Part shown: piece by piece, positions 20,428 to 64,000 of the stretch
How positions within the stretch are numbered: the stretch's first letter is position 1
Layout of the letters: each line of letters begins with the position of its first letter
NCBI GenBank assembly: GCA_049523135.1
Contig: JBEKNE010000001.1
Coordinates: 287,770 to 351,769 of the forward strand
DNA: 64,000 bases
Direction of reading: 5' to 3'
From: Candidatus Microgenomates bacterium
GTDB taxonomy: Bacteria > Patescibacteriota > Microgenomatia > UBA8517
Translations under genes and position numbers: made by a program
The notes under the pieces: generated by a model
The model's database searches: none
What the model was told of the DNA's origin: nothing
Seen by the model: only the letters and a program-made list of their open reading frames with translations

Positions 20428-20456
20428 TTGCATCTCGTCGTTTCTTTTGCTACTAT
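20428..20456 (+). promoter_or_regulatory. Sigma70-like promoter (TTGCAT - 17 nt - TACTAT) 7 nt upstream of the rfbF ATG (leaderless-type)
   Basis: Hexamers at 20428-20433 and 20451-20456; ATG at 20464; no SD. Confidence 0.45.
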
Positions 20457-20463
20457 TTAAGCC

Positions 20464-21255
20464 ATGCAGACAGTTATTTTGTGCGGCGGCAAGGGCACAA
20501 GAATGAAAGAAGAGACGGAATTTCGTCCCAAGCCACTGGTTGAGATAGGTGGTATACCAATCCTCTGGCATATTATGCAAATCTACATGTACTATGGTTA
20601 TAACGACTTCATCTTGGCGTTAGGATATAAGGGAAACATGATCCGCGACCTATTTAAGGAGTGGTATACAAATACGAACGATTTCTCCATTGATATGTCT
20701 ACCGGTAAGACTACGGTTTTGAGTAATAGGCAGAGAAATTTTAAAGTCACTTTGGTAGAGACCGGGGACACACCCGATAAAGAAATCTTAACCGGTGAGA
20801 GAATTTTAAGGACAGCCCCATACATTAAAGGTGATGAATTTATGCTTACCTATGGTGACGGGGTTTCCGATATCGATATAAAGAAAGTCGTAGACTTTCA
20901 TCATAAGATGGGAACTCTGGCTACTGTTTCAGGTGTCCATCCCAAATCCAGATTCGGCCTTGTCGAAAGAGATAATAAAACAGGACTGGTTACTCAGTTT
21001 AGTCAGTATCCTGTCATGCGTGAGTATATAAGTGGAGGTTTTATGGTTTTTAAAAGAAAAGCCTTGGACTATTTTACAGACGGTCAGATGGAAGAAGGTT
21101 TGGGTCATCTTGCTGAAGACAAGCAGTTATCAATGTATATTCACGAAGGATTCTGGAAGGCTGTTGATACATATAAAGAATTGGAACAACTTAATCAGCT
21201 TTGGTATGATGGCCGTCCTTGGGCCGTATGGGAGAAAAAAGATAATCAGAAATGA
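20464..21255 (+). CDS. rfbF: Glucose-1-phosphate cytidylyltransferase
   Basis: Near-collinear similarity to Salmonella RfbF/Yersinia DdhA: MQTVILCGGKGTRMKEE..RPKPLVEIGGIPILWHIM ... LTYGDGVSDIDI ... GGFMVF. Confidence 0.9.
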   Translation: MQTVILCGGKGTRMKEETEFRPKPLVEIGGIPILWHIMQIYMYYGYNDFILALGYKGNMIRDLFKEWYTNTNDFSIDMSTGKTTVLSNRQRNFKVTLVETGDTPDKEILTGERILRTAPYIKGDEFMLTYGDGVSDIDIKKVVDFHHKMGTLATVSGVHPKSRFGLVERDNKTGLVTQFSQYPVMREYISGGFMVFKRKALDYFTDGQMEEGLGHLAEDKQLSMYIHEGFWKAVDTYKELEQLNQLWYDGRPWAVWEKKDNQK

Positions 21256-22319
21256 AGGAAGACCTTGGAAAATTTTTTAAGGGTAAAAAAGTCCTTATAA
21301 CAGGTCATACCGGCTTCAAGGGAGCTTGGCTTGCCGAAGTTCTCACTCTCTGGGGAGCCAAAGTAATCGGAGTATCTCTGGAGCCATACACGGAACCCAA
21401 TCTCTACACTGTTCTTAAACTTGGTGAAAAGGTAAATAATTATTTTGCCGATATCACGGATCAAAGGAGGCTGGCGGATATTTTTGCAAAAGAACAGCCG
21501 GAAATTGTTTTTCACTTGGCAGCCCAAGCAATAGTCAAGATAAGTTATGAGGATCCTCTCCGTACATTTAGGGCAAATGTCATAGGATCTGCAAATGTAC
21601 TTCAAACAATCCGCGAGACAAAATCGGTTAAAACCGGAGTAATGATAACTTCTGACAAGGTTTACGAAAATAAAGAGTGGGTACATCCGTACCGTGAGAT
21701 AGACAGGCTTGGAGGGCACGATCCGTACAGTGCCAGTAAAGCCGCAGCGGACATTATTGATCAGTCTTTCATAAAATCTTTTTTCACTGAGGAAACTGAT
21801 CCCTTTGTCGGTATTACCCGTGCGGGAAATGTCATTGGAGGTGGGGATTGGTCGCCTTACAGAATTATTCCGGACGTGGTACGTGCAATTTACGAAAAAG
21901 GCGAAGCTGTCGTAATTCGAAACCCTCAGTCAATTAGGCCTTGGCAGTTTGTTTTGGAGCCGCTTTCCGGTTATCTTCTTCTTGCCAAAAAACTATTTGA
22001 AGGTGACAGGTCATTAATAACCACTTGGAATTTTGGTCCGCATCAGGGCAATTTTGTAACTGTTTCTGAGTTGGTTGAAGCCGGAGTTAAAATTCTCGAC
22101 AAGGGTTCATACAAAGTTGTGCCCGATAAGAGTTTTCACGAATCAACATTTTTAAAACTCGATATTTCCAAAGCCCACGATCTCCTTGGCTGGAGTCCAA
22201 AACTGGATATCAAAGAAACATTGGGATACACATACGATTGGTATAAAAATTATTATGAGCATCTGAAGTCTCCAACTGAATTTACCGATAAGCAGATAAC
22301 CGAATATTTTTCTAAATAA
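21252..22319 (+). CDS. rfbG: CDP-glucose 4,6-dehydratase
   Basis: KVLITGHTGFKGAWL Rossmann motif, YSASKAA catalytic region, RAGNVIGGGDW and IRPWQFVLEPLSGY motifs shared with RfbG/DdhB. Start overlaps the rfbF stop. Confidence 0.9.
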   Translation: MKEDLGKFFKGKKVLITGHTGFKGAWLAEVLTLWGAKVIGVSLEPYTEPNLYTVLKLGEKVNNYFADITDQRRLADIFAKEQPEIVFHLAAQAIVKISYEDPLRTFRANVIGSANVLQTIRETKSVKTGVMITSDKVYENKEWVHPYREIDRLGGHDPYSASKAAADIIDQSFIKSFFTEETDPFVGITRAGNVIGGGDWSPYRIIPDVVRAIYEKGEAVVIRNPQSIRPWQFVLEPLSGYLLLAKKLFEGDRSLITTWNFGPHQGNFVTVSELVEAGVKILDKGSYKVVPDKSFHESTFLKLDISKAHDLLGWSPKLDIKETLGYTYDWYKNYYEHLKSPTEFTDKQITEYFSK

Positions 22320-22852
22320 TGATTTTCACTCCAACAAAAATTGACGGAATGTTTGAAGTTACTCTTGAACCCCATGAAGACGAAAGAGGTTATTTCAGAC
22401 GTATGTTTGCCGAAGAGGAATTTGCAAAGGCGGGGATAACCGATTTCAAAATAGTCCAAATTAATCAAGCTTATACAAAATCTGCCGGGGTTTTGCGGGG
22501 ACTTCACTGGCAGACGGAACCAAAACTGGAAGCGAAATACTTCCAATGTTTAAATGGAGAGATCTTTGATGTTGTGGCAGATACAAGACTGGATTCAAAA
22601 ACTTATGGTGTCTGGGCGGGTTTTCATCTCAAGAGTGACGAAAAGAAACTTTTGTTTATTCCCGGAGGCGTTGCCCATGGATATGAAACATTAACAGATA
22701 ATTGCATGGTTCAATATATGGTTTCGGAATTTTATTCGCCTGAGGTAGAAAAAGGTATCAGATGGAATGACCCCACATTTAATATTGAATGGCCTCTTGA
22801 ACCCACCTTCATGTCCGAAAAAGATAAAAATCTGCCGGATTTTAAAAAATGA
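22319..22852 (+). CDS. RmlC-like cupin sugar-nucleotide 3,5-epimerase (predicted to act on the CDP-4-keto-6-deoxyhexose)
   Basis: About 177 aa; ERGYFRRMF and RGLHWQ motifs of the dTDP-4-dehydrorhamnose 3,5-epimerase family. Confidence 0.8.
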   Translation: MIFTPTKIDGMFEVTLEPHEDERGYFRRMFAEEEFAKAGITDFKIVQINQAYTKSAGVLRGLHWQTEPKLEAKYFQCLNGEIFDVVADTRLDSKTYGVWAGFHLKSDEKKLLFIPGGVAHGYETLTDNCMVQYMVSEFYSPEVEKGIRWNDPTFNIEWPLEPTFMSEKDKNLPDFKK

Positions 22853-23718
22853 AAAATAAAGTATTGATATTGGGTTCTCAGGGAACACTTGGACAATCTT
22901 TGGTTAATGAATTTCAAAAGAATGGGTATGAAGTGGTTGCATGGGATAGGGGTGACTTGGATGTCACTGCTCCCGACGCTCCAAAAAAGATTAAGGATCT
23001 CCATCCTCAAATAATAATTAATGCTATTGCCTATAATGCGGTAAATAAGATGGAGACTGATGAAAATGAGAGAAAAATTGCGTTTCTGATTAACGCTAAA
23101 GCCCCCGGAATTCTGGCAAATACAGCGAAAAGTATTGGAGCGATTTTTGTTCATTATTCCACGAGTTATGTATTTCCCGGAGATAAAAAAGAAGGGTACA
23201 GGGAAACAGACACTCCGGGCCCTGTAGATATTTATGGTGAATCTAAGCTGGAAGGCGAGAAAGCAGTAGAAAAAGTTGGAGGCAAATATTATATCTTAAG
23301 GCTTTCCCGTCTTTTTGGTGTAAAAGGTGCAAGTGAGATGAGCAAAAGAACATTCGTGGATATTATGATTACCGAGATTGACAAGAGTGAATTGGAAGTT
23401 GGCGACACGGAGGTTAGTTCACTGACCTACGCTCCCGACTTGGCGAAGGTGACAAGAAAAATTGTCGAAGAAAATAAACCTTATGGCATCTACCACTCCG
23501 CAAACGAGGGACTGTGTACCTGGTATGAATGGGCAAAAGAAATTTTCAAAGATTTGGGTAAAGGACCAAAAGTAATTCCCGCAAAACACACTCTAACACC
23601 AGGTGGAGTAAAACATCCCCAATATTCGGGTCTTATAAATACAAAACTTTCCAAGCAAAGAACATGGCAGGAAGCTTTGAAGGAGTTTATAGAAGCGGAG
23701 TATAAAAATCAAAAATGA
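22849..23718 (+). CDS. RmlD-like NAD(P)H-dependent 4-ketoreductase (dTDP-4-dehydrorhamnose reductase family)
   Basis: N-terminal Gly-rich dinucleotide-binding motif ILGSQGTLGQ, a YSTSYVF/YGESK catalytic region, and RmlD-like length. Confidence 0.8.
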   Translation: MKNKVLILGSQGTLGQSLVNEFQKNGYEVVAWDRGDLDVTAPDAPKKIKDLHPQIIINAIAYNAVNKMETDENERKIAFLINAKAPGILANTAKSIGAIFVHYSTSYVFPGDKKEGYRETDTPGPVDIYGESKLEGEKAVEKVGGKYYILRLSRLFGVKGASEMSKRTFVDIMITEIDKSELEVGDTEVSSLTYAPDLAKVTRKIVEENKPYGIYHSANEGLCTWYEWAKEIFKDLGKGPKVIPAKHTLTPGGVKHPQYSGLINTKLSKQRTWQEALKEFIEAEYKNQK

Positions 23719-24305
23719 CTGAAAAAACAAGCGGTTTTGATGATGGTGATGACCAAAAAGTTATCGACATCTTAAATAAATGGGACGGAGGGCCACTTTC
23801 CGACAAGCTTTTTACAAAGTTTGCGGAGATGGCTCCCCAGACGAGTGTAATAACGGTGGTGTTCAGGAAAGATGGAGATATGCTTGAGACACTGCTTCTG
23901 AAAAGACCTGAAACCGATCCGATTTGGCCTGGAGTTTTGAACTTGCCCGGAAAAATGTTCAGAAAAATTGATTTTGTGAGGGAGGATAACCATCCTGAGA
24001 GGGGTCCTATCGGGAGGATTGAGAAAGACGAAATAGGTTCAAATTTTACCCAAAAACCTGAATTTGCCGGAGTGGCTTTCCAGGACACAAAACGCGGTCC
24101 GACAATCGTTTTAGTTTATGTAATTAATGAAGACGTAAAACTACCGAAAGGTGGAGAATGGCACAATGTGGATGAACTTAAGAATTTACCCAATTTGATA
24201 GAAACGGAACGGGTTGCTATTGATGTGGCTCTAAAAAGTCATTTGGCAGGTTCAAACCACTTACCTTCTTTATATCCTGTGGAATTCCAGAAGAAATCGG
24301 CCTGA
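23715..24305 (+). CDS. Hypothetical protein, possible degenerate Nudix-like sugar-nucleotide hydrolase
   Basis: Last gene of the translationally coupled CDP-sugar operon. The WPGVLNLPGKMFRK segment resembles the start of a Nudix box but lacks canonical catalytic residues. Confidence 0.4.
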   Translation: MTEKTSGFDDGDDQKVIDILNKWDGGPLSDKLFTKFAEMAPQTSVITVVFRKDGDMLETLLLKRPETDPIWPGVLNLPGKMFRKIDFVREDNHPERGPIGRIEKDEIGSNFTQKPEFAGVAFQDTKRGPTIVLVYVINEDVKLPKGGEWHNVDELKNLPNLIETERVAIDVALKSHLAGSNHLPSLYPVEFQKKSA

Positions 24306-25210
24306 CTCACTTTTTTGTAGAGCCAGAGTGGAGCTCTATGGTAGCAAAGTCTGCCGAATTGATATCCCAGCCAACCAAAGGCCAGCTGGAAAAATGCAGT
24401 GGGTAACATAAGCGGTTCCTCTTTTAGTACATTGATTAGCAGATATTTGGCGTACGAAGCTCCGCGCGCCTGGTCTCCTCCTTTTCCTAAATTTAAAGTT
24501 TGGTGCCATTGTTTTCTGTACATTCCGGTATCAAAATGCCTGACAAACTCTTTTGCCGGGGAATAGTTATGTGAGTGTTCGACAACCGCATCGGCAGCGT
24601 AAGCGACTTTATAACCCTTTTTAAGCAGCATCGCTACGGCGATAGTGTCTTCTCCCGAGAGAGTCCATCTGAATCCGCCGATGTCGTCAAGAGCTCTATT
24701 AAGATAGGCGGCACAGGAGTCCGAACAAAAAATTGTATAGACACCATATTTTTTTGCATCACCTATACCTCTAATATTACTTTCTTCCGGAAAATTAAAT
24801 TTTCTTCCCAGCCTGGCAATAACATTTGCCCCCGGGTGGGCTACTTGCCTTGCATAAGAGACTGCGGCTTTCCCATCGATAATAGGTTTGACTAATTTCG
24901 AAAGCATTTCCTTATCCTTCGGGTAGGCATCAGGCGTCATCATGACGACAATATCGGTTCCCAGTTTTTTTCTGCAAAGCTCGCGGGCACTTCCATGATT
25001 CATTTCAATCCTTGGAATTACTAAAGTGTCGGCTTCCATCTTTTTTGCCAACTCAATCGTTCCGTCATTGGAACTGGAGTTAAAAACAAGAACTTTTGGT
25101 CTAAGTGGCGAATTCAAAAGCGGAGGTAAGCATTTATCAAGATGACGGATATCTTTAAATGTGATAACGGCAACTCCAATACTCATCTTTTTAGGCCGTT
25201 TTTTGTCCAT
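24239..25210 (-). CDS. GT2-family glycosyltransferase
   Basis: The N-terminal GT-A domain begins at SIGVAVITFKD and the TDIVVMMTPDAYP segment lies within it. Start set to the internal ATG (MDKKRPKK...). Confidence 0.7.
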   Translation of the reverse strand: MDKKRPKKMSIGVAVITFKDIRHLDKCLPPLLNSPLRPKVLVFNSSSNDGTIELAKKMEADTLVIPRIEMNHGSARELCRKKLGTDIVVMMTPDAYPKDKEMLSKLVKPIIDGKAAVSYARQVAHPGANVIARLGRKFNFPEESNIRGIGDAKKYGVYTIFCSDSCAAYLNRALDDIGGFRWTLSGEDTIAVAMLLKKGYKVAYAADAVVEHSHNYSPAKEFVRHFDTGMYRKQWHQTLNLGKGGDQARGASYAKYLLINVLKEEPLMLPTAFFQLAFGWLGYQFGRLCYHRAPLWLYKKVSQADFFWNSTGYKEGKWFEPAK

Positions 25211-25275
25211 AATTGTGATTAATATTATACAACGTTGCGTAGGAGGGTATCGGTAGGGTATCATTTCTCTAGCGT

Positions 25276-26226
25276 ATGAGTACGAAAAAGGTGGGTATTT
25301 CAGTCGTAATTGTCAGTTGGAACACCAAGGAAATAACAGATACATGCTTGGCTTCAATGAAGAAGGCTGTGGATTATGTTAAGGATAGGGCAAATGTCGA
25401 GGTAATTGTGGTTGAAAACGCCTCAGAAGACGGGTCTTTTGAGATGATTGCTAAAAAACACCCCTGGGTTAAGTTAAAGTCCTCGGGTGCCGACTTAGGT
25501 TATGGTAAAGGAAATAATTTTGGATATAAACTTTGCGATTCAAAAAATGAATATCTGCTTCTTCTTAATAACGACGCTTATGTAAATGAAGATACCCTGG
25601 CCAGATCGTTGGATTTTATGGCTGGTCACCCCGATTGTGGCGTACTTGGCTGCCAACTTAGATTTTTAGACGGCAGATTCCAACCCTCGGCCGGTTTCTT
25701 GCCGACCCCGGCTTCGGTTTGGTCCTGGATTTGGGGGTTAAGCCTCGTTCCGGGAGTCAAATTGTTTTTCAAACCATTTCATCCTGCCGATAAGGATTTC
25801 TTTAAAAAAGACCGTGAAGTTGGTTGGACAATGGGAGCTTTCTTGTTTATGAAAATGGAGGTCTTTAAGGATAGCAAAGGCTTTGATGAAAACTTCTTTA
25901 TGTATATGGAAGAAGTGGAATGGTGCAGACGCGCCAAAAAAGCAGGTTATAGAATCTTTTATACGCCAAGTTTCTGGGTGACCCATGTAGATAAGGCAAG
26001 TGCGATGGGTAAACCCGAAGAGCTTGCAAAGATCTTTAGGCGCGAGATTTTAGGGTTTGTTTATTACCTAAACAAAAATTACAAAAACCAATCTTGGTGG
26101 TTTATTCCGGCGATTAAGGCCGGAATTGCCTTGCGTTTATTGGCTTTTACTTTGTTAGGTAATAAAATGAGGCAAGACGCTTATAAGCAAACGCTTGAGC
26201 AATTCGGGAAAGCGCTTTCAAACTAA
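25276..26226 (+). CDS. GT2-family glycosyltransferase (rhamnosyltransferase-like)
   Basis: ISVVIVSWNT ... VVENASEDGS ... LLLNNDAY motifs, the DxD region, and a C-terminal amphipathic/TM tail. Confidence 0.8.
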   Translation: MSTKKVGISVVIVSWNTKEITDTCLASMKKAVDYVKDRANVEVIVVENASEDGSFEMIAKKHPWVKLKSSGADLGYGKGNNFGYKLCDSKNEYLLLLNNDAYVNEDTLARSLDFMAGHPDCGVLGCQLRFLDGRFQPSAGFLPTPASVWSWIWGLSLVPGVKLFFKPFHPADKDFFKKDREVGWTMGAFLFMKMEVFKDSKGFDENFFMYMEEVEWCRRAKKAGYRIFYTPSFWVTHVDKASAMGKPEELAKIFRREILGFVYYLNKNYKNQSWWFIPAIKAGIALRLLAFTLLGNKMRQDAYKQTLEQFGKALSN

Positions 26227-26235
26227 ATTTAATAT

Positions 26236-28011
26236 ATGACAGAACTTAAAAAAGTGGCACTTGTTACGGTTAACTTTGGTAAACCTGATGACACTTTGGA
26301 TCTTCTTAAAACCGTCAGAACTCTTGATACAAAGGGGTTGGATTTTAAGATGGTCGTGGTTGATAAAACTCCGGATACATGGATTGGTGACGCAATCCCC
26401 AAGGATTTTCCTGATATCGAAATAATTCAGGCCGGTTGTGATAAAGGTTTTACCGGTGGGTACAACCTCGGAATGAGATATGCTGCCGCATGGGGTGCAG
26501 ATTATATAGCTATTATCAATAACGATACACTGATTGGGGATCCTCAGATTCTCAAAAAATTTATTGAGGTGTTGGACGAAAATAGAGACGGGGTTGTGTC
26601 GCCAAAAATATATTTTGCAAAAGGCTACGAATTTAAAGACAGATATGCAAAAAAGGATTTGGGACATGTAATTTGGTATGCGGGAGGGGAATTTGATTGG
26701 GCAAATGTTCGCTCGGTTCACAAGGGAATTGATGAGGTTGATGAAGGTAAATATGACGCAGTCACAAAGACCGGTTTTGTAACCGGATGTTGTTTTATGG
26801 TGAAGCGGCATACTCTGGAAAAAGCCGGATACTTCGATGAAGACCTGTTTGCTTATTTTGATGACAACGATTGGCAACAGCGAATCTTAAAAATTGGAGG
26901 AGCTCTTTATTATCATGGCGGAACGCATATTTATCATAAAGTTTCCCAGACAATGGGGATTGGCTCCGAACAGACGGATTATTTATTAACAAGGAATAGA
27001 CTCTATTTCACTTTTAAGTATGCAAAACCCCGTGTTAAATTCGCGGTTTTTAGGGAGATGATAAGACAGCTTGTAACGGGTCGGCCTGCACAGAAAAAAG
27101 GCGTTATGGATTTTATTAAAGGAGTTAAGGGACACTCTCCTTATAAAATTCCGTCAGAAGGACTCTACCATTATCCTGTCAGGCTTTCTGTAATTGTCTC
27201 CAGTTATAAAACAAGTGCTCTTACGTCTGAGCTTCTAAAGAGCATTTATAGGGAGGGATCCGGTTTTGATCCAAAGCAGGATGAAGTTATTGTTTTGGAT
27301 AACGCAACCGATGACGACTTTTCAGTTGTTACTAAAAATTTTCCACAAGCAAGATACCTTAGGAATGTTGTTAATAAGGGTTTTGTCGGCGGAAACAATC
27401 GACTTTTTGAATACTCGCGCGGTGAGCTGGTCTTGATGTTTAATACAGATATAGAAGTAAAAGGTAACAGTATTGGGGAACTCATTAGGACTAGCCGCGA
27501 GTTTAATGATGAGGCAGTGTTAACCGGTAGACTTCTTTTCCCTGACGGAAGCCCGCAGGATTGTTGCTTTAATTTACCTACCATACGCGGTGTTCTTAAG
27601 GAATATTTATTAAAGCAAAAAGGCAGTTTCTTTATGTTTTTGCCGAAAGGAGATAATCCTGTAAGAGTTGAGGGTGGAGTAATGGCCGACTTTTTGATTC
27701 CCCGCAAGGTAATAAACAAAATTGGGGTATTGAATAGGAAGCTTTTTATGTACTTTGAAGACATTGACTATTGCAGAAGACTTAAAAAAGCTAAAATTCC
27801 GGTCTATTACATTCCAAAGGCTGAGTTTTATCATCACCACGGAGCAACAGCCAAGAAGATTGGTAAGCCGGCGATTAATACACAAATAATTGAAAGTTCA
27901 AAGATCTATCACGGTAAGTTCCGTTATGCTCTTATTACGGCCGCGTTGTGGTTTGTGCAAAAAGTAAATATTGTTACATCTCCAAAATCGAGGTGGGAAA
28001 AAGATAAATAA
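26236..28011 (+). CDS. Tandem two-domain GT2 glycosyltransferase
   Basis: Two successive GT-A modules (VALVTVNFGK...IAIINNDTL and LSVIVSSYKT...VLMFNTDIEV), each with its own DxD-like segment. Confidence 0.8.
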   Translation: MTELKKVALVTVNFGKPDDTLDLLKTVRTLDTKGLDFKMVVVDKTPDTWIGDAIPKDFPDIEIIQAGCDKGFTGGYNLGMRYAAAWGADYIAIINNDTLIGDPQILKKFIEVLDENRDGVVSPKIYFAKGYEFKDRYAKKDLGHVIWYAGGEFDWANVRSVHKGIDEVDEGKYDAVTKTGFVTGCCFMVKRHTLEKAGYFDEDLFAYFDDNDWQQRILKIGGALYYHGGTHIYHKVSQTMGIGSEQTDYLLTRNRLYFTFKYAKPRVKFAVFREMIRQLVTGRPAQKKGVMDFIKGVKGHSPYKIPSEGLYHYPVRLSVIVSSYKTSALTSELLKSIYREGSGFDPKQDEVIVLDNATDDDFSVVTKNFPQARYLRNVVNKGFVGGNNRLFEYSRGELVLMFNTDIEVKGNSIGELIRTSREFNDEAVLTGRLLFPDGSPQDCCFNLPTIRGVLKEYLLKQKGSFFMFLPKGDNPVRVEGGVMADFLIPRKVINKIGVLNRKLFMYFEDIDYCRRLKKAKIPVYYIPKAEFYHHHGATAKKIGKPAINTQIIESSKIYHGKFRYALITAALWFVQKVNIVTSPKSRWEKDK

Positions 28012-28012
28012 A

Positions 28013-48933: not shown

Positions 48934-48935
48934 AG

Positions 48936-52312: not shown

Positions 52313-52315
52313 TCT

Positions 52316-53515: not shown

Positions 53516-54108
53516 AAAAGCTTATTTGGTTTACCAGTATTTTTATTTTAGTTTTAATATTTATAGTCCCCGCAATTATGGTGTTAGGAATTAAGATAAT
53601 TCCTTCTGATGTTCAACCACCCCTTCAATATACACAAGATGTTTATCAGGATCTCTACATATCTCAGGAATTTACCAGTCTTTTACCAAATCTTACAGAT
53701 ATTGGTATGTCCATCAAAAACCCAAATCTTAAAGATCAAAATGATATAACTCTTTCTTTGTACGATCAGAATGGGCAGCTGGTTAGGACTTCAAAACTAA
53801 ATGGACTAAATATTGGCGATGGAGCTTTCGTTAAATTCCAATTTAGTCCTATTATAGATTCCCTGAATCAGAGATATTCGTTTACCATAATGTCTCCGTC
53901 CTCCTATCCTGAAGATTTATTTGAACTTTTTTACACGGATGACAAGCCTTCGTGGATAGGTCAGATGCAATTTAACGGTAAGAATGTGGTCGGAGGGCTT
54001 TCGTTTGTAACTTTTCACCAACCTGTAAGTAAGATTGGTTTGATTAAGAGTATCTATTCCGATTTCATTTCCAGATTTCTACATCTTCATTCTCAAAAAT
54101 CAATTTAA
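53512..54108 (+). CDS. Hypothetical membrane-anchored exported protein inside the GT-C array
   Basis: Start overlaps the upstream stop. N-terminal TM anchor followed by a beta-rich ~170-aa domain. The 3' end overlaps the convergent gene by ~44 nt. Confidence 0.4.
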   Translation: MKKLIWFTSIFILVLIFIVPAIMVLGIKIIPSDVQPPLQYTQDVYQDLYISQEFTSLLPNLTDIGMSIKNPNLKDQNDITLSLYDQNGQLVRTSKLNGLNIGDGAFVKFQFSPIIDSLNQRYSFTIMSPSSYPEDLFELFYTDDKPSWIGQMQFNGKNVVGGLSFVTFHQPVSKIGLIKSIYSDFISRFLHLHSQKSI

Positions 54109-55903: not shown

Positions 55904-55929
55904 ATATAAATTATATATAATAGTAGCAT

Positions 55930-57345: not shown

Positions 57346-58849
57346 TCTCAAAAAATTGAAGATATTTGTAAAATCAAAATGGTTTAAAATTTTTGTATTT
57401 GCGTTGGTCTTTGTCTTTACTTTTATCCTTCGTGCTCATAATTATGAAAGAACACCAACTTCTAACCATCTCGATGAACAGTTATATGCACTTTCCGGGA
57501 TTTATTTGGTAGAAACCGGGACACCGGTTTCCTGGTCAACCTTAAATTATCCCAAAAGTGCTGAAGTCTTTTCTGGACTTTTAACTTATAAAGGAGGACA
57601 ACCATCAGCTTACGTGACACTTTTCAGACCCTGGCTTGATGAGCCACCTCTGTTCTCTCTTTTGGTAGGGGAGTCAGCGCATATATTCCATGTAGACAGA
57701 ACCGGTTGGATACCCTCTTCATATATCAGATTTCCGATAGTTATAATTTCTGCTTTTACCTCAATACTGATTTTTTTGATAGCCATGGAAGTTAGCGGAT
57801 TTTGGACGGGTATTTTGACAATGCTTATCTACGGAACTGAACCAATTATGGTTTTTGCATCACGTACGGCAATGCCCGAGACTCTTATCGCATTTTTCTT
57901 TTGCTTAATGATCTATTTGCTTCTGAAGTTTATGAAGAATAAAAGTTTTTGGTATATTGTTCCTATCCCAGTTTTTGCAGGACTTTCTGGACTTTCCAAA
58001 CCAACTGGTTATTTTATTTTAGGTCTTGCAATCTATGTTGTTTTTTCAGAGTTTTATAAACTGAAACCTATTAAATGGGACAAGGTAGTTAAATATTTAT
58101 TATATTTGGTGCTAGCTACTGTTCCATTTGTTTTGATATACATTTGGTATGGGAATCACTTCAATTCTGAAATATTCAAGAGTATAGTCTTAACTCAGGG
58201 TTTTAGACCTGCTGGTTTTAATAGTCTTGCTTGGTTTTTCATAACTCCCAGTGCAGATACAACAATTCTTAGAAGTGCTTGGTATGTTTTTTGTCTTGTA
58301 TCAGCTGCTTTCTTTATCTTTCAGCCAAAAGAAAAAGTAAAGCAGCTTATTAGTCTCAGCTTTATCTATTGGGTGGTGGTTGTAATGCTTTCAGGGGGTG
58401 AAAATGATCTGCTTTCTTGGTATAGATTTCCTGCTTTTCCATTCCTTGCAATACTCGGGGCATGGGGGGTTGAATATATTTATGAAAAAGCTGACTTTTT
58501 TGCATCTTTCTTTGGCGTAGGATTTTTGCTGGGTAGCAGAATGCTTTTAGTAAATGCTTTTAGGCCAAATGTGTCTGCTGATACCTTTCGCTTTTCTTTT
58601 TCGATGCTTTTAGCACCGTCTTTACTTAACACAATCTTTAATAGGAGGTGGCTTAAGTTTCTGAGTCGGATTGTTATCGTTGGAGTGGTAGTTGTAGGAA
58701 TGTGGTGGAATGTTAAATATATTTACAATGCTTACGAACTTGATTGTGAGAGTCAGACTTGTCCCATGGTACCCTCAACAATTCTTTCCAGCCTGCATTA
58801 TCCTGTTATCTGGCGCTTCTTTGTACTTGGAGATTCGGTTCTGCACTAA
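57317..58849 (+). CDS. GT-C membrane glycosyltransferase, ArnT/PMT-like (family A2)
   Basis: HLDEQLYALSGIYL loop motif and multiple TM helices. Start at the internal ATG; it overlaps the upstream gene by ~29 nt. Confidence 0.65.
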   Translation: MAMLQLLTNNLKKLKIFVKSKWFKIFVFALVFVFTFILRAHNYERTPTSNHLDEQLYALSGIYLVETGTPVSWSTLNYPKSAEVFSGLLTYKGGQPSAYVTLFRPWLDEPPLFSLLVGESAHIFHVDRTGWIPSSYIRFPIVIISAFTSILIFLIAMEVSGFWTGILTMLIYGTEPIMVFASRTAMPETLIAFFFCLMIYLLLKFMKNKSFWYIVPIPVFAGLSGLSKPTGYFILGLAIYVVFSEFYKLKPIKWDKVVKYLLYLVLATVPFVLIYIWYGNHFNSEIFKSIVLTQGFRPAGFNSLAWFFITPSADTTILRSAWYVFCLVSAAFFIFQPKEKVKQLISLSFIYWVVVVMLSGGENDLLSWYRFPAFPFLAILGAWGVEYIYEKADFFASFFGVGFLLGSRMLLVNAFRPNVSADTFRFSFSMLLAPSLLNTIFNRRWLKFLSRIVIVGVVVVGMWWNVKYIYNAYELDCESQTCPMVPSTILSSLHYPVIWRFFVLGDSVLH

Positions 58850-58895
58850 TTTGTCGGAAAAATTTTACTTGCAGTTTTGAAGCTGGTACCATTGA

Positions 58896-60554
58896 ATGAG
58901 AATGAAAAAAGTCATTTACCCCGCGCTTTTAAGTTTGGTTTTGGTCTTAGCTTTCTTTTTGAGGTTCTACAAACTCACCAGCGATCCGCCATCTCTGAAT
59001 TGGGATGAGGTTGCAATCGGATACAATGCCTATTCAATCCTGAAAACAGGGAAAGATGAGTGGGGAGTAAAGCTTCCTTTAAATTTTGAATCATATAGCG
59101 AATATAAACTTCCTACCCAGATCTATGCCTCAATACCGGCGATTGCTATATTTGGGCTTAATGACTTTTCGGTGAGAATAACTCCTGTGATTTATGGTGT
59201 ACTAACGGTTCTGTCTGTATATTTTTTGACTTACGCCCTTTTTAAGAAAAAAAGCGTTGCTCTACTTACCGCTTTTTTGGTTGCAACTTCAGCTTGGCAT
59301 ATTCAGCTCACACGTGCGTCTTTCGAATCTTCATTTTCGGTTCTTTGGGTAGTTCTTGGACTTTGGCTCTTAATTTTGGGATTTAAAAAACCCAAGTATT
59401 GGATAGTTTCTGCCATTCCATTTGCGATTTCTGTTTATACATATAATAGTGCTAGGGTTTTTACTCCACTTTTCCTTCTTGCGATTCTATTGATTTACAG
59501 AAAAGAATTTCTTAAAAACGTCAAGTATGCTGTCGCTGCCACCATTTTACTTTTTGTTTTGGTTGCACCTCTGATACCAATTATTCTTAATGGTCAGGCA
59601 ACCGATCGGTACAAGCTAGTTAGTATTACCAACGACCCAGGTCTTATTCCGCGAATTGATCAGGCCAGGAATAACTCAAAATTACCACCTCTTTTGACTA
59701 AACTTGTCTATAACAGAGTAACTTATGTAAGTATCTATTTTACCGAAAATTACTTGGCCCATTTTACGCCAAACTTTCTTTTTATTAGTGGTGCTGGGCA
59801 TAAGCAGCATAATGTTCAGGGAATGGGGGAACTCTACCTTTTTCAAGCGCCGTTTATTCTCGTAGGACTATATTTTCTTTTCAAAAAGAAAGTGCCTTTC
59901 AGGTGGCTTCTACTAAGTTGGCTCTTGATTGCTTTTATTCCTGTTGCCACAACCGATGATAGTATTCCCAATGCTTTGCGAACTATTATTGCTGAACCCT
60001 TTTACGAACTTATAACTGCATATGGAATTTATGAGGTGTACTTGTGGGCTAAAGATAAAAAAATAACAAGTTATGTTCTCTGGGGGGCAACAATAATTCT
60101 TGCTTCTTACAATTTTTATCATTACCTTTATCTTTTTTATGACGTCTATCCATATAAATATTCTGAAGATTGGCAATATGGATATGAACAGGCGGTTTCA
60201 TATATTCAAAAAAATTACAGTAAGTATGATTTGATTGTTTTTACCCGAACTTATGGTGAGCCATATATGTTTACTCTTTTTTATCTCAAATATGATCCTG
60301 CTGAATTTCAAAATAATCCGAACTTGGACCGTTTTATAGCCAACAATTGGGAATGGGTTTTGAAGTTTGATAAGTTTTATTTTCCCGATTTGGGAGATCC
60401 CGGAACGCACTATCAGGATATAGTTAAAGCAAATCCTGGCAAAAAGATTCTTTTTATAGGTAAACCTGGGGACTTTCCGGCGGGTACTCCGATTTTGGAA
60501 CAAATAAATTTCTTGGATGGAAAAGGTGACTTCCAGATTACAGATATAAAATGA
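58896..60554 (+). CDS. GT-C membrane glycosyltransferase, ArnT/PMT-like (family A2, tandem paralog 1 of 3)
   Basis: LNWDEVAIGYNAYSIL loop motif. Conserved C-terminal segment DWQYGYEQAVSYI...GEPYMFTLFYLKYDP shared with the next two genes. Confidence 0.7.
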   Translation: MRMKKVIYPALLSLVLVLAFFLRFYKLTSDPPSLNWDEVAIGYNAYSILKTGKDEWGVKLPLNFESYSEYKLPTQIYASIPAIAIFGLNDFSVRITPVIYGVLTVLSVYFLTYALFKKKSVALLTAFLVATSAWHIQLTRASFESSFSVLWVVLGLWLLILGFKKPKYWIVSAIPFAISVYTYNSARVFTPLFLLAILLIYRKEFLKNVKYAVAATILLFVLVAPLIPIILNGQATDRYKLVSITNDPGLIPRIDQARNNSKLPPLLTKLVYNRVTYVSIYFTENYLAHFTPNFLFISGAGHKQHNVQGMGELYLFQAPFILVGLYFLFKKKVPFRWLLLSWLLIAFIPVATTDDSIPNALRTIIAEPFYELITAYGIYEVYLWAKDKKITSYVLWGATIILASYNFYHYLYLFYDVYPYKYSEDWQYGYEQAVSYIQKNYSKYDLIVFTRTYGEPYMFTLFYLKYDPAEFQNNPNLDRFIANNWEWVLKFDKFYFPDLGDPGTHYQDIVKANPGKKILFIGKPGDFPAGTPILEQINFLDGKGDFQITDIK

Positions 60555-62122
60555 AAAGAATAGAAATTATTTTTTTGTCGGTTATCGTAGTTATTGCAGC
60601 CGTTATACGTTTTATCGCAATAACCAGTATTCCTCCTTCATTGGATTGGGATGAGGCCTCAGTTGGATACGATGCTTATTCGATTTTACAAACCGGCAAA
60701 GACCAGTGGGGAAAGATTTTTCCTATTGTTTTTCAATCTTTCGGTGAATTTAAATACCCTATCCATATTTATTTTACGGCTTTGACTACGTGGATATTCG
60801 GATATGGCACTTTTTCGGTTAGAGTCGGGTCGGCATTTTTTGGAGTTATAAATATTGTACTGTTATTTTTCCTCGTTTGGATTTTGACGAAGAGTAAAAC
60901 GGTTGCATTTACGGCAAGTTTACTTATGGCATTTTCCCCTTGGGCGATTCAATTCTCCAGAGTTAATTGGGAAACAAATTTTGGGCTTTTCTTTTTCTTT
61001 TTGGGGATAATTTATTTCTTTAAAGGTTTGGAAAAGAAAAGATGGTTTATCCCTCTTTCTTTTCTGCTTTTTGGGATCGACCTTTTTACTTATAATGCTG
61101 CAAAGGTTTTTATACCTTTATTTGTTTTTGCTTTGGTAGTTATTTATTGGAAAGATCTACTTCAGAATAAATTTTATTCAATAATAGGTGCCTTGATATT
61201 TTTTGGCTTTATCTTAGTTAATGTTTTTCAGCCCGACTTATCTGGCATTGGTCGTTTGGGTCAAGTAGTTTTTCCGGACAGTGAGATTAAGTCCACATAC
61301 CTATATAAATTGACAAAGCACGAAAAAGTAGGCATGCTTCAGCTTGTCGCTCAAAATTATTTATTCCACTTTACACCTCAATTCCTTTTTATTTCGGGTG
61401 ATTCCAACCCAAGACATTCAATACAAACAGTAGGGGAACTTTACTGGTTTGATGCCATATTATTGCCTATTGGTTTCTATTACATAATTAGAAATAACAA
61501 GAAATGGTCATGGCTTTTACTTGTCTGGTTTTTTCTGGCTCCAATTCCGGCATCAATAGCGACGGAAGCTCCACATGCATCGCGTACAATGTTTGCAATT
61601 GGAGGGTGGCAGGTTGTTTCGACATTGGGTTTTTGCTGGTTGTTGGACTTAGCTAAAAAGCTTAAATTCCAATTGTGGTTTGTTACAATTTCAACTTTAG
61701 TGTTTTTACTCTTTACCGAAAATTATCTTTTTAAATATTTTGGGGCTTATTCCGTAAACTATTCGAGTGATTGGCAATATGGTTATATGAAAATATTTAC
61801 GGGCTATAAAAATGATTTTGGCAGATACAACCACATCGTTGTCTCCGATCAAGATGGACAGCCATATATTTTTGCCCTTTTTTACCTTAAATATAACCCT
61901 GATTTGTTCAGGGAAACCGTTGTCTATAACCCGGAAAACGATTGGGGAGCCTCGACCGTAAAAAGTTTTGATAAGTTTGTATTTAAAAAGGTTGAAAATT
62001 CTGATTTACAAAAAAATACTTTAATTTTTGCTACGCCTATGGATATGATTACAAATGCGACACCATTGGGAGTTATTAGGAATTTGGACGGAAGCGTAGC
62101 TTTTTGGGTTTATTCTAAATGA
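60551..62122 (+). CDS. GT-C membrane glycosyltransferase, ArnT/PMT-like (family A2, tandem paralog 2 of 3)
   Basis: LDWDEASVGYDAYSIL and DWQYGYMKIF...GQPYIFALFYLKYNP motifs; ATGA overlap with the upstream gene. Confidence 0.7.
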   Translation: MKRIEIIFLSVIVVIAAVIRFIAITSIPPSLDWDEASVGYDAYSILQTGKDQWGKIFPIVFQSFGEFKYPIHIYFTALTTWIFGYGTFSVRVGSAFFGVINIVLLFFLVWILTKSKTVAFTASLLMAFSPWAIQFSRVNWETNFGLFFFFLGIIYFFKGLEKKRWFIPLSFLLFGIDLFTYNAAKVFIPLFVFALVVIYWKDLLQNKFYSIIGALIFFGFILVNVFQPDLSGIGRLGQVVFPDSEIKSTYLYKLTKHEKVGMLQLVAQNYLFHFTPQFLFISGDSNPRHSIQTVGELYWFDAILLPIGFYYIIRNNKKWSWLLLVWFFLAPIPASIATEAPHASRTMFAIGGWQVVSTLGFCWLLDLAKKLKFQLWFVTISTLVFLLFTENYLFKYFGAYSVNYSSDWQYGYMKIFTGYKNDFGRYNHIVVSDQDGQPYIFALFYLKYNPDLFRETVVYNPENDWGASTVKSFDKFVFKKVENSDLQKNTLIFATPMDMITNATPLGVIRNLDGSVAFWVYSK

Positions 62123-63720
62123 AAAATTATATTAAATATCTACTACTGACATTAATAGTAATTGGGGCTGCTTTTTTAAGGATCTATAAACTTACTCAAG
62201 TGCCTTCATCTCTTAACTGGGATGAAGTAGCAGCAGGGTATAATGCTTTCACAATTGCCAATTGGGGTGAGGATGAGTATGGCAACAAATTTCCTCTTGT
62301 TTTTAGATCATTTGGGGACGATAAACATCCAGTCCATATTTATATAACTGCATTTTTCGTAAAGATTTTTGGTTTGAATGAATTTACAACAAGATTTCCC
62401 AGTGCTCTTTTTGGAACTTTGACAGTGGTTGCAATTTATTTTCTTATAAAATTGATGTTTAAAAACGAACTTGCTGGTATTCTCTCTGCTCTTTTTCTGG
62501 CAATTTCACCTTATCACTTGCAATTTTCCAGAGGCCTTTGGGAGATTACATTTGCTGTATTTTTTTATATTTTAGCTCTACTACTTTTCTATCTAGGAAT
62601 TAAAAAGAAATCTTGGCTTCTGCCCCTGTCTTGTTTCAGTTTTGGGATTTCATTTTTCTCTTATCACTCATCAAAAGTTATGGTGCCTCCGACAATTCTT
62701 CTTTTGTCCGTTTTATATTTTAAAGACATAATTAAAAACAAAACAGCACTTATTTTCAGCGGTTTGGTAATACTTCTTTTTACAGGCTTAACTATCCATG
62801 ACCCAAGGATTTTAGGTTTTGCCAGGATCGAGCAAAATCAAATACCCCAAAGTGAACTTGATGCAACCGTTCTGTACAAAAAAACTCACAATCAGTATTT
62901 GGCTATGGTGGAGGTTACTCTGAATCATTATAAAACATATTTCTACCCAAGTTATTTGTTTGTCACGGGGGATAGTAATCCTAGGAATGCCGTGCAGAAC
63001 TTTGGAGAGTTTTATAAAGTTGATGCATTTTTAGTTTTGGCTGGAATTGTGTATCTTATTTGGAAGAGGCCAAGAGAAGGATTGGTTTTGGCATTATGGC
63101 TTGTCTTGGCTCCTATTGCGGCTGCTTTTGCAGGTGGTCCACAAAATGCAATTAGAGCCGGTTTTATGATGGGTGGTGTTAATATCCTTGCTGCTTTAGG
63201 GGCAAGTGGTTTTATTAGTTTTATTAAGAATAAAATTTGGTATGTTGTTGCTGGTCTTATTATTTTAGTTCCTCTTTTTACGGAATTTGGAATGTATTTG
63301 AAATATTACTATACGGAATACTCGAATAAATATGCGATCGAATGGCAGTATGGCATGAAACAGATTGTTGAATATTTAAAAGCTAACCCAAATTACATTC
63401 AAGTGTATATGGATAATATTAGACAGCAGCCGTATATCTTTTTCTTGTACTACTTTAAGACACCTCTTCCGGATTTGCTCAATACAGTACATTATGACGA
63501 CAGCCGGTCAAAAAGTTATAACACAGTAGTATCCTTTGGAGAATATCAGTTCGGTGGAAACTGGAATATAATAGATAGCTATCCAAACGATGATGTTTTG
63601 TACATAATGACACCAAGCTATTATGGGGGACTGAGGTATATCAGTCAATTTGATGTTAAAGATTTGATTAAATATCCAAACGATGCTAACGCGTTTTATA
63701 TTGTAGAAGCAAAACAATGA
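62119..63720 (+). CDS. GT-C membrane glycosyltransferase, ArnT/PMT-like (family A2, tandem paralog 3 of 3)
   Basis: LNWDEVAAGYNAFTI and EWQYGMKQIV...QQPYIFFLYYFKTP motifs; ATGA overlap with the upstream gene. Confidence 0.7.
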   Translation: MKNYIKYLLLTLIVIGAAFLRIYKLTQVPSSLNWDEVAAGYNAFTIANWGEDEYGNKFPLVFRSFGDDKHPVHIYITAFFVKIFGLNEFTTRFPSALFGTLTVVAIYFLIKLMFKNELAGILSALFLAISPYHLQFSRGLWEITFAVFFYILALLLFYLGIKKKSWLLPLSCFSFGISFFSYHSSKVMVPPTILLLSVLYFKDIIKNKTALIFSGLVILLFTGLTIHDPRILGFARIEQNQIPQSELDATVLYKKTHNQYLAMVEVTLNHYKTYFYPSYLFVTGDSNPRNAVQNFGEFYKVDAFLVLAGIVYLIWKRPREGLVLALWLVLAPIAAAFAGGPQNAIRAGFMMGGVNILAALGASGFISFIKNKIWYVVAGLIILVPLFTEFGMYLKYYYTEYSNKYAIEWQYGMKQIVEYLKANPNYIQVYMDNIRQQPYIFFLYYFKTPLPDLLNTVHYDDSRSKSYNTVVSFGEYQFGGNWNIIDSYPNDDVLYIMTPSYYGGLRYISQFDVKDLIKYPNDANAFYIVEAKQ

Positions 63721-64000
63721 TTAAACTCTCAGTTATTCTGGCTACGAGGAATGAAGAAGAAAATATTGGCAGGTGTTTAGAGTCTGTCAAAAATATTGTC
63801 GATGAGATAATTGTGGTTGATGAAAATTCAACTGATAAAACCCGCGAAATTGCCGAAAAAAATGGAGCGAAAGTATTTTTGGAACCCCATCATGATATTT
63901 TTCATATAACTAAAGAAAAGGCTTTGGAAAAAGCGACAGGGGATTGGATACTTCAACTTGATGCGGATGAGGTTGTAACCTCTGAACTGTCGAAAGAAAT
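63717..64000 (+). CDS. GT2 glycosyltransferase, WaaE/KdtX-like; 3' end outside window
   Basis: MIKLSVILATRNEEENIGRCLESV...DEIIVVDENSTDKTREIAEKNGAKVF...ILQLDADEVV; paralog of 36806... ATGA overlap with the upstream stop. Confidence 0.7.
   Translation, partial: MIKLSVILATRNEEENIGRCLESVKNIVDEIIVVDENSTDKTREIAEKNGAKVFLEPHHDIFHITKEKALEKATGDWILQLDADEVVTSELSKE

Follow-up and report, generated by a model that had tools for sequence, protein, structure and literature searches.

A chromosomal gene cluster rich in GT-C glycosyltransferases and its probable role in envelope-glycan assembly in Microgenomates

Overall organization of the glycosylation cluster

The 64,000-nt stretch analysed here (hereafter the window; contig JBEKNE010000001.1 of a Candidatus Microgenomates bacterium, positions 287,770 to 351,769) carries, from position 20464 to its end, a gene cluster given over almost entirely to glycosylation and dominated by polytopic GT-C glycosyltransferases. 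All 35 complete open reading frames (ORFs) between 20464 and 63720 were translated and scanned against Pfam, and part of them against NCBIfam. Examined ORF by ORF, 31 of the 35 are glycosylation genes, which bears out an earlier note on this DNA that took almost every gene from rfbF onwards for a glycosylation enzyme; the remaining four encode TrmD, a DHH/DHHA1 protein and two proteins without a family match. The inventory comprises a CDP-glucose/6-deoxyhexose module, nine complete GT2 enzymes and a tenth cut at the window end, one GT4, one Wzx/MOP flippase and 16 GT-C enzymes, the last divided into nine PMT_2-like, three YfhO-like, one GT87, one Gpi18-like and two members of an orphan family termed family D. 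The GT2, GT4 and flippase numbers agree with those first proposed (about ten, one and one), and the dominance of GT-C enzymes stands, although their count rises from 15 to 16 with Pfam and fold searches combined. Glycosylation genes do run from rfbF (20464), but sugar-nucleotide genes already begin upstream of it, with galE at 15673 and a galU-like gene at 17867.

As had been foreseen, the array continues past the window end. Locus L001, taken from the 633,165-bp contig Ga0427927_000010 of JGI metagenome 3300038416, differs from window positions 52119-64000 by one mismatch in 11,882 bases; it represents the same population and adds at least 9.7 kb of cluster sequence (positions beyond 64000 are given as window-equivalents). 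The cluster spans at least 20.4-73.7 kb in window coordinates (at least 53 kb), its far end lying beyond L001, and makes up about 5-6% of the ~0.9-Mb genome of an ultra-small bacterium of groundwater type.

For comparison across species, the family D alignment was used as a marker query against one genome per species. Of the loci found in this way in 446 genomes, the best 80 were retrieved with 10-kb flanks each, and their ORFs were labelled through the best phmmer match to the window proteins.

The GT-C enzymes

GT-C enzymes work at the extracytoplasmic face with lipid-phosphate-linked donors, which are made by enzymes such as GtrB, DPMS and ArnC. Apart from the two family D members listed further below, the GT-C genes of the window are the following (coordinates, strand, assignment).

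30085-31275 (-): M396, Gpi18-like GT-C; no Pfam match, GT-C fold by structure
31986-33542 (+): B1, PMT_2-like; PF13231 1.3e-11; acidic motif FLGDEGRD after the first transmembrane (TM) helix, TM1
34506-36008 (+): B2, PMT_2-like; PF13231 1.6e-06; D40 and D44 conserved
39382-41766 (+): YfhO-family GT-C of 794 residues; PF09586 1.9e-21; 12 hydrophobic segments; C-terminus PgfM1/PgfM2-like
42730-44217 (+): B3, PMT_2-like; PF13231 25.8 bits against a cutoff of 26.1; hhalign probability 100% with B1 and B2
44218-45720 (+): P44, PMT_2/PMT-like, conserved core; PF13231 2.8e-12, PF02366 8.9e-09; FADE motif
48936-50621 (+): C1, YfhO/PTPS_related; PF10131, PF09586 and PF13231; 40% identity to C2
50618-52312 (+): C2, YfhO/PTPS_related; PF09586 3.5e-09, PF10131
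52316-53515 (+): GT87-like GT-C; PF09594 25.6 bits against a cutoff of 25; PF05007 (PIG-M) 25.0 against 23.4
55930-57345 (+): A1, PMT_2-like, opening a variable tandem array; PF13231 1.1e-08; paralogy within family A
57287-58849 (+): P57, PMT_2/PMT-like; PF13231 4.1e-12
58896-60554 (+): A2, PMT_2/PMT-like; PF13231 4e-11; NWDE motif
60551-62122 (+): A3, PMT_2/PMT-like; PF13231 1.3e-10
62119-63720 (+): A4, PMT_2-like; PF13231 4.4e-18

Thirteen of the 16 polytopic proteins have a GT-C match in Pfam, 12 of these 13 above the gathering score. The other three (47245-48933, 54065-55936 on the minus strand and 30085-31275 on the minus strand) match neither Pfam nor NCBIfam, and their GT-C fold comes from structure search, in which the top hits of the D1 and M396 models were GT-C enzymes exclusively. 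Two GT-C families of the cluster, family D and the Gpi18-like M396, are absent from both databases. Each of the 16 proteins has 6-12 hydrophobic segments, as counted with a crude hydropathy scan. Profile-profile comparison (hhalign), using profiles from orthologues in the related loci and Wzx as a negative control, reproduced the five GT-C families named before: the A, B, P44 and P57 groups, a 395-residue protein of L001 (X395) and the YfhO-like C1, C2 and YfhO form one PMT_2/YfhO network at more than 90% probability, and family D, GT87 and M396 each stand isolated from it. The Wzx profile matches no GT-C family.

That these polytopic proteins are transporters or other non-glycosyltransferases, and the cluster a product of weak motif reading, is exceedingly improbable. 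Three of the 16 did initially lack a Pfam or NCBIfam assignment; against this stand the 13 Pfam matches, 12 of them above gathering score, and the GT-C fold of these very three. We regard the transporter explanation as refuted by the Pfam matches, the GT-C-only top structural hits and the behaviour of the Wzx control, and most of the polytopic proteins are accordingly assigned to GT-C families, as the HMM check proposed at the outset was meant to decide.

In every GT-C family an acidic motif follows TM1 at a distance of 10-25 residues, and the N-terminal tail before it is short and basic. The motifs read NWDE (A), GDE/YDQGRD/YDHDND (B), FADE (P44), MQDD/TQD (C), PGD (YfhO), GHD (D) and HPD (GT87), and they are at least 93% conserved in the family alignments, except in that of B1, which aligns poorly. 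M396, whose structural neighbours include ALG12, ALG9, ALG3 and GPI-MT-I, is the most conserved gene of the cluster: the best 120 of its 2,256 homologues share 70% identity or more, compared to 25-50% for the other GT-Cs. Such sequence conservation suggests that M396 may catalyse an essential, invariant step.

Lipid-sugar synthases and soluble glycosyltransferases

The second group of genes encodes GT2 and GT4 enzymes, among them three putative lipid-phosphate-sugar synthases.

24239-25264 (-): GT2a; PF00535 1.7e-10
25276-26226 (+): GT2b; PF00535 3.5e-13
26236-28011 (+): GT2c2, with two GT2 domains; PF00535 9e-22 in two stretches
28666-29814 (+): DPMS-type synthase of 382 residues, a GT2 domain followed by a GtrA-like TM domain; PF00535 and PF04138
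31264-32004 (+): PPS1, GtrB/ArnC-like, 246 residues; best PDB matches GtrB sll0501 (1e-18), ArnC (9e-17) and DPMS
36005-36751 (+): PPS2, DPMS/GtrB-like, 248 residues, conserved core; best PDB matches DPMS 5mlz (9e-16) and GtrB (1e-15)
36758-37702 (+): GT2d, cytoplasmic GT2, conserved core; PF00535 2.8e-21; in 74 loci
37703-38419 (+): GT2e, divergent GT2, conserved core; PF00535 23.7 bits against a cutoff of 23.3; GT2d paralogue (3e-25); in 77 loci
38400-39428 (+): GT4 (GT-B fold), conserved core; PF00534 1.7e-24; in 68 loci
41837-42733 (+): GT2f, cytoplasmic GT2, conserved core; PF00535 1.1e-26; in 68 loci
63717-64000 (+): tenth GT2, 5' part only (the full gene, of 283 residues, lies on L001); identified from its translation

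The 28666-29814 protein aligns end to end with Pyrococcus furiosus DPMS (5mlz), its residues 3-369 matching residues 24-372 at 5e-36, TM domain included. The best solved relatives of all three synthases are GtrB sll0501, ArnC and P. furiosus DPMS, in line with their original designation. Against the NCBIfam equivalogs (PgfS, ArnC, PpgS and Dol-P-hexose transferase) they score at best 70-77 bits, and none reaches the cutoffs of 370-529; the best NCBIfam match of PPS1, ArnC, is likewise below cutoff. The sequence comparisons support a relationship to DPMS/GtrB/ArnC at the level of the family. We infer the use of a lipid-phosphate-linked sugar donor by the GT-C enzymes solely from their co-location with these synthases.

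Predicted structure of family D and its partnership with Wzx

The flippase gene and the first family D gene overlap, and a second family D gene lies downstream on the opposite strand.

45753-47255 (+): Wzx/MOP flippase; PF13440 (Polysacc_synt_3) 2.6e-51, 175 bits against a cutoff of 23; 14 hydrophobic segments
47245-48933 (+): D1, orphan GT-C of family D, beside Wzx; STT3-like predicted fold
54065-55936 (-): D2, second family D member; 33% identity to D1 (6e-89), hhalign probability 100%

Wzx proteins flip lipid-linked oligosaccharides. In NCBIfam, the protein matches the MOP flippase and O-glycosylation flippase (1.4e-32) models, both below cutoffs. D1 has more than 1,500 close homologues in a 5.8-billion-protein collection, none with a GT-related Pfam domain, and falls into 1,686 clusters at 50% identity in a library of 1.84 billion representatives; the source names shown are all 'hypothetical protein', and the taxa named are all Patescibacteria, Microgenomates or 'uncultured bacterium'. 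Neither single-sequence phmmer nor a 57-sequence profile gave more than chance hits for family D in Pfam, NCBIfam or the full set of PDB sequences, and the family was assigned through structure prediction alone. The structural neighbours of the model are listed with the pair of values recorded for each.

STT3B: 20.5, 429
Pmt4: 18.8, 326
Pmt2: 18.0, 332
PglB: 17.4, 420
AglB: 16.9, 395
ALG12: 16.8, 344
AftA: 16.7, 442
ArnT: 16.5, 420

The predicted fold is closest to that of STT3/PglB/AglB, the C-terminal globular domain included. The D1 model has 11 TM helices by DSSP and consists of an N-in TM core followed by a C-terminal external α/β domain of the AglB type. Seven residues are invariant in the 57 family D sequences: D42, D76, E152, R279, R320, E433 and R502. 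The short loops between the model TM helices hold 7 Lys/Arg in 24 residues on the cytoplasmic side and 5 in 86 on the external side. By the positive-inside rule, this charge bias would place the invariant acidic residues and the C-terminal domain outside, the orientation that had been anticipated for the acidic loops; D42, D76, E152, R279 and R320 are predicted to lie outside or at the interface.

D1 directly follows Wzx 63 times in the 80 loci. In a database protein of 1639 residues (P0280), Wzx, a domain of ~450 residues and family D are joined in a single chain. Because of this fixed adjacency, the Wzx-D fusion and the STT3/PglB/AglB-like predicted fold, family D is the best candidate for the enzyme that receives the flipped intermediate. 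The ~450-residue domain, which is secreted and extracytoplasmic, is fused to the N-terminus of family D in other lineages (P0242, P0258 and P0280) and forms a separate ORF between Wzx and D1 in L028 (7920-9983) and L040 (7893-9956); it has no Pfam match and no informative PDB match, and it is absent from the window.

The structural neighbours also bring in a mycobacterial comparison. In mycobacteria, lipomannan/lipoarabinomannan (LM/LAM) and arabinogalactan are assembled with PimE, MptA-C, AftA-D, EmbA-C, Ppm1 and decaprenyl-phosphoarabinose (DPA) donors, and GT87 is common to that system and the present locus. Among well-known bacterial systems, only that of mycobacteria uses more than 12 linkage-specific GT-Cs to build one envelope glycan from polyprenyl-phosphate sugars; the mycobacterial GT-C genes are scattered over a 4.4-Mb genome, five times larger. 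The present genes, in contrast, form one syntenic locus in an unrelated lineage without sequence matches to the Emb/Aft families. A lipoglycan or wall heteropolysaccharide of this LM/LAM or arabinogalactan-like style, built outside by linkage-specific GT-Cs on a glycolipid or lipid-linked primer, is an unlikely product of the cluster. It would account for the many GT-Cs drawn from several families, among them a Gpi18/PIG-V-like enzyme and a member of GT87, to which PimE belongs, for the presence of AftA, AftB, AftD and PimE among the structural neighbours, and for the finding of neither Wzy nor a protein-directed motif. However, Emb/Aft-specific families gave no Pfam match, the GT87 match is only narrowly above its cutoff (25.6 against 25), genes of the decaprenyl-phosphoarabinose pathway were not found in the examined DNA, and en bloc transfer agrees at least equally well with the Wzx adjacency and the STT3-like predicted fold of family D.

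Conservation across Microgenomates

The family D marker is present in 446 species genomes, and the related genomes keep a syntenic core, so that the comparative check suggested at the outset came out positive. By this marker, the nearest genomes, with identities of up to 72%, are metagenome-assembled genomes (MAGs) that carry the name Candidatus Woesebacteria or Microgenomates. The Woesebacteria/Microgenomates belong to the Patescibacteria group, where complete relatives (CP055307.1 and CP066693.1) measure 0.90-0.92 Mb. All informatively named records among the 80 retrieved loci belong to the Microgenomates group, and the cluster is a lineage-wide trait that is not confined to one genome. Dozens of MAG records with the locus (L007, L008, L011, L012 and others) are titled 'uncultured Gammaproteobacteria bacterium', almost certainly a placeholder or a wrong taxonomy.

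A median locus of 21.6 kb holds 18 ORFs, 15 of them matching window glycosylation genes and 8 (range 4-11) GT-C-like. Genes recur in the order B1-DHH-B2-(B3)-PPS2-P44-C1..-Wzx-D1-GT2d-GT2-GT2e-GT4-YfhO-(B2)-methyltransferase-GT2f-GT2-A2, within which the succession GT2d, GT2 (labelled GT2c2), GT2e, GT4 is kept in 61-65 of the 80 loci; the closest relatives (L006-L009, L033 and L081) share the window's own rearranged order. The conserved core consists of PPS2, P44, Wzx, D1, GT2d, GT2e, GT2f, GT4, B2 and B3, with median identities of 57% for PPS2, 56% for GT2d and GT4, 55% for GT2f, 53% for Wzx, 51% for P44 and 49% for D1. The A-family array, P57, D2 and GT87 form a fast-evolving periphery; median identity is 28-31% for the A family and 31% for GT87, B1 stands at 25% among the peripheral values, and P57 has almost no counterparts (one weak one in the 80 loci). 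This split between core and periphery suggests that the inner part of the glycan is invariant and the outer part variable.

The synteny, together with the absence of integrase, transposase and tRNA genes, places the locus in the core chromosome, as the earlier note had supposed. Both the tRNA scan and the Rfam scan of the window were empty, and no integrase or transposase occurs among the Pfam matches of the window proteins. A mobile island was considered and rejected on these grounds and on the synteny over 80 loci of related species.

Sugar-nucleotide genes

The following genes lie at and just upstream of the cluster start.

15673-16665 (+): GalE, UDP-glucose 4-epimerase; TIGR01179 386 bits, above cutoff; Pfam Epimerase
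17867-18757 (+): GalU-like UTP-glucose-1-phosphate uridylyltransferase; TIGR01099 261 bits, below the cutoff of 327; NTP_transferase
20464-21255 (+): RfbF-like glucose-1-phosphate cytidylyltransferase; TIGR02623 6.7e-75 over the full length, 252 bits against a cutoff of 300
21252-22319 (+): RfbG, CDP-glucose 4,6-dehydratase; TIGR02622 446 bits, above cutoff
22319-22852 (+): RmlC-type 3,5-epimerase; PF00908 2.9e-58; TIGR01221 above cutoff
22849-23718 (+): RmlD-type 4-reductase; PF04321 1.1e-67; TIGR01214 225 bits against a cutoff of 224

GalE, although upstream of the cluster start, probably supplies the cluster. The 20464-23718 module is a hybrid, in which the CDP-glucose enzymes (RfbF-like and RfbG) are followed by enzymes of the RmlC and RmlD types, which normally use dTDP sugars. 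Its make-up suggests a CDP-linked 6-deoxyhexose as the product.

A proposed pathway for outer-face glycan assembly

The present analysis provides insights into how such a glycan might be assembled. It starts from what is shown directly: which genes are present, that two unannotated families have the GT-C fold, that three GT2s are kin to DPMS/GtrB/ArnC, and that synteny is conserved. We propose that this is a vertically inherited chromosomal envelope-glycan assembly locus of Woesebacteria-type Microgenomates (Patescibacteria, or candidate phyla radiation, CPR), shared across the group, which we consider probable, and that it very probably encodes an outer-face glycan pathway driven by GT-C enzymes. 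The handover of a lipid-linked oligosaccharide from Wzx to family D is a tentative suggestion, possible but less likely than not.

In the proposed pathway, activated sugars would come from GalE, GalU and the branch from CDP-glucose to CDP-6-deoxyhexose. The soluble GT2d-GT2e-GT4-GT2f block, with the other GT2s, would build an oligosaccharide on polyprenyl phosphate at the inner membrane face, and the Wzx/MOP flippase would transfer it outwards; it is the conserved position of this soluble block beside Wzx that points to assembly inside followed by flipping. Family D, encoded directly after wzx, would then transfer the flipped lipid-linked glycan to an acceptor. Meanwhile, the three DPMS/GtrB-like synthases (four with a downstream gene) would provide polyprenyl-phosphate monosaccharides of three or four kinds, from which the PMT_2-like, YfhO-like, GT87 and Gpi18-like GT-Cs would extend or branch the glycan at the outer face, each probably forming one linkage. 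Candidate acceptors include surface proteins, wall polymers and lipid anchors, and the sequence does not point to one of them, in agreement with the earlier note.

Several points weigh against this proposal. No initiating phosphoglycosyltransferase (PglC/WbaP or WecA/MraY type), Wzy or chain-length regulator was found in 15.6-73.7 kb (~58 kb), where Pfam Bac_transf, Glycos_transf_4, Wzy_C and Wzz gave no matches, nor does a phosphoglycosyltransferase, Wzy or Wzz occur among the eight largest groups of recurrent unassigned ORFs in the 80 loci. Family D matches neither Pfam STT3 (PF02516) nor the solved oligosaccharyltransferases in sequence, and the WWDYG motif occurs nowhere in its 57-sequence alignment. 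Residue 271 of D1 is Gln in this genome and in its closest homologue, compared to Glu in 53 of 57 homologues. PPS1 and PPS2 have no predicted TM helix, and the labels in the 80 loci are best hits among paralogues, which is not proof of orthology. In addition, the proposal is drawn from genes, folds and synteny.

At the place of WWDYG, family D has a strand-loop that reads, by eye, (V/I)(V/I)LTYP(F/Y)D (LTYPFD). Residue 271 sits in the external EL4 loop motif PFWFLE(T/S)MM, where D2 has Arg. Among the recurrent unassigned ORFs of the 80 loci are an S-adenosylmethionine (SAM) methyltransferase, an ABC transporter and additional polytopic proteins of GT-C-like type. The gene for the initiating step may lie elsewhere in the genome. 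Alternatively, initiation may begin with a polyprenyl-monophosphate hexose, by analogy with AglJ of Haloferax; the AglJ model gives weak NCBIfam hits.

Two neighbouring envelope proteins bear on the acceptor. The protein encoded at 9562-10215 is a LytR_C-domain membrane protein with a Ser/Thr/Pro/Ala-rich tail ending ATPTSTPAATPTASPTP, and that at 16665-17570 is a CAP-domain protein whose linker resembles this S/T/P-rich tail. S/T/P-rich segments are typical O-glycosylation targets in Actinobacteria and streptococci, and these two proteins are possible acceptors that give only a hint of protein O-glycosylation. We consider it unlikely that the cluster as a whole is a PMT/Pgf-type O-glycosylation system, in which PMT_2- and YfhO-like enzymes would act on Ser/Thr-rich disordered segments of many secreted or membrane proteins, the paralogues being specialised by substrate or by successive sugar. 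The nine PMT_2/PMT matches and the S/T/P-rich tails agree with such a system, as do PgfS as the best NCBIfam match of PPS2 and the GT2-GtrA protein, PgfM1/M2 as that of the YfhO C-terminus, and the 'O-glycosylation flippase' match of Wzx (1.4e-32, below cutoff). However, all the NCBIfam matches fall far short of the equivalog cutoffs, the broad PMT_2 family also takes in lipid- and polysaccharide-modifying enzymes such as ArnT, MIR domains are absent, and no acceptor was identified.

Comparison with known glycosylation systems

The scheme of a GT-A lipid-sugar synthase, a flippase of GtrA or Wzx type and a GT-C enzyme is established (PMC8035078). The Gram-positive systems built on it (CsbB/GtcA/YfhO, GtlA/GtlB, CsdAB/CD/EF and GacI/J/K/L; PMC8035078), together with streptococcal Pgf, resemble the present locus in roles and families: they share a GtrB/DPMS-type GT-A, a GtrA-like or Wzx-type flippase and a YfhO/PMT_2 GT-C that acts outside. 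They differ in scale, with 1-3 GT-A/GT-C pairs per genome, each for a single decoration (PMC8035078), compared to 16-18 GT-C genes of five families plus a soluble GT2/GT4 block in a genome of less than 1 Mb.

These systems suggest another view of the cluster, as a collection of independent multi-component transmembrane glycosylation systems in which each GT-C draws one sugar from a common pool of polyprenyl-phosphate sugars for an acceptor of its own, be it a teichoic-acid-like polymer, wall polysaccharide or a protein, as modelled by CsbB/YfhO, GtlA/GtlB and CsdAB/CD/EF of Firmicutes, and no single product is assembled stepwise. It is a credible view that we nevertheless doubt. Synthase genes do abut GT-C genes like the known GT-A/GT-C pairs (PPS1-B1 and B2-PPS2 in the window, PPS2-P44 in 29 loci), the Firmicutes systems use the YfhO and PMT_2 families, and in Lactococcus lactis one lipid-sugar pool and one flippase serve several GT-Cs (PMC8035078). 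In the present locus, however, at least 16 GT-C genes face 3-4 synthases, 23 kb of tightly packed co-directional genes have overlapping stop and start codons, and the soluble GT2/GT4 block and Wzx are conserved along with the GT-Cs class-wide. This joint conservation points to a common lipid-linked intermediate.

The overall logic of the proposed pathway is shared with N-glycosylation as carried out by eukaryotic ALG/Dpm1/Rft1/STT3, by Haloferax AglJ/G/I/E/D, AglR, AglS and AglB, and by Campylobacter Pgl. They all have soluble glycosyltransferases at the inner face, Dpm1/AglD-like synthases, a MOP-type flippase and GT-Cs at the outer face. The locus departs from them in that family D has neither STT3 sequence similarity nor WWDYG, an initiating GlcNAc-1-P or diNAcBac-1-P transferase is lacking, and there is no evidence of a sequon or protein acceptor. 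A bolder extension of the proposal, possible though on balance doubtful, would make family D an unrecognised oligosaccharyltransferase-type branch of GT-C enzymes that transfers the Wzx-flipped oligosaccharide en bloc to proteins or the wall in Microgenomates. It would do so within a dolichol-like bacterial pathway, with Dpm1-like synthases and ALG/GPI-mannosyltransferase-like GT-Cs as partners, that makes a surface coat on ultra-small cells.

Wzx/Wzy-dependent O-antigen, capsule and S-layer loci share the Rfb/Rml-type module, several GT2/GT4 enzymes and Wzx with the cluster, and differ from it in that Wzy, Wzz, WaaL and an initiating transferase were not detected here and GT-Cs dominate. Altogether, the components are of known kinds, and the arrangement is not a known one. 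No published description of the locus was found in the searchable literature, the coverage of which leaves out most subscription journals, so that an earlier description is possible.

A Parcubacterium with 20 glycosyltransferases has been reported, and the composition and biogenesis of the CPR cell envelope have been described as unclear (PMC5220378). The locus offers a genetic handle on this envelope, its conserved core likely specifying an invariant inner glycan, and it allows specific biochemistry without culturing the organism. CPR/Patescibacteria live attached to or dependent on other cells, and their surface is therefore central to their biology. The rapidly diversifying GT-C array might serve to vary the surface, to recognise hosts or to evade phages. 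If the predicted fold is right, family D, in its fixed pairing with Wzx, would bring a new bacterial lineage into the structural class of STT3/PglB/AglB-like enzymes.

Neighbouring genes and downstream continuation

The four ORFs of the cluster without a glycosylation assignment are as follows.

23715-24305 (+): soluble protein of 196 residues, overlapping the rmlD stop codon; no Pfam or NCBIfam match
28013-28642 (-): trmD; PF01746 1.5e-54; housekeeping insert, outside the pathway
33539-34522 (+): NrnA-like DHH/DHHA1 phosphoesterase; PF01368 and PF02272; NrnA model 116 bits against a cutoff of 350
53512-54108 (+): protein of 198 residues with one N-terminal TM helix; no family match in Pfam or NCBIfam

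Two of these had been taken for embedded housekeeping genes, trmD and nrnA. TrmD does look like a genuine housekeeping insert, but the DHH/DHHA1 gene adjoins a B-family GT-C in all 16 loci where it is seen among the 80, and it may be a functional member of the cluster instead of an unrelated insert. The 198-residue protein has 6 homologues, found in the order GT87-u198-D2, and accompanies GT87 and D2 in close relatives. The upstream 1-15 kb hold ordinary housekeeping genes, for aminoacyl-tRNA synthetases, SecA, TGT, a release factor, FtsE/FtsX and a PcsB-like hydrolase. The last of these form a cell-division hydrolase module just upstream of the cluster (12342-15126), with FtsE, FtsX and a PcsB-like coiled-coil protein that has a C39-like peptidase domain.

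Past the window end, the gene order on L001 is the GT2 of 283 residues, a GT4, an epimerase, a PPS-like GT2 (223 residues), a DUF2304 protein (110 residues), a GT2, the 395-residue polytopic protein, a SAM methyltransferase, a methyltransferase-GT2 fusion and two further polytopic proteins. The 395-residue protein has a TNDD motif and matches PMT_2-like profiles at 85-97% probability; one of the last two polytopic proteins is weakly PMT_2-like (84% probability). The PPS-like GT2 is directly followed by the DUF2304 membrane protein (L001 14370-15375, window-equivalent 66488-67493), a pair that resembles GacI/GacJ in joining a GT-A enzyme to a small membrane partner. The SAM-dependent methyltransferase, of ~218 residues (L001 17601-18257, window-equivalent 69719-70375), recurs within the cluster in 37 of the 80 loci, usually just before GT2f, and its recurrence hints at a conserved glycan with a methylated sugar.

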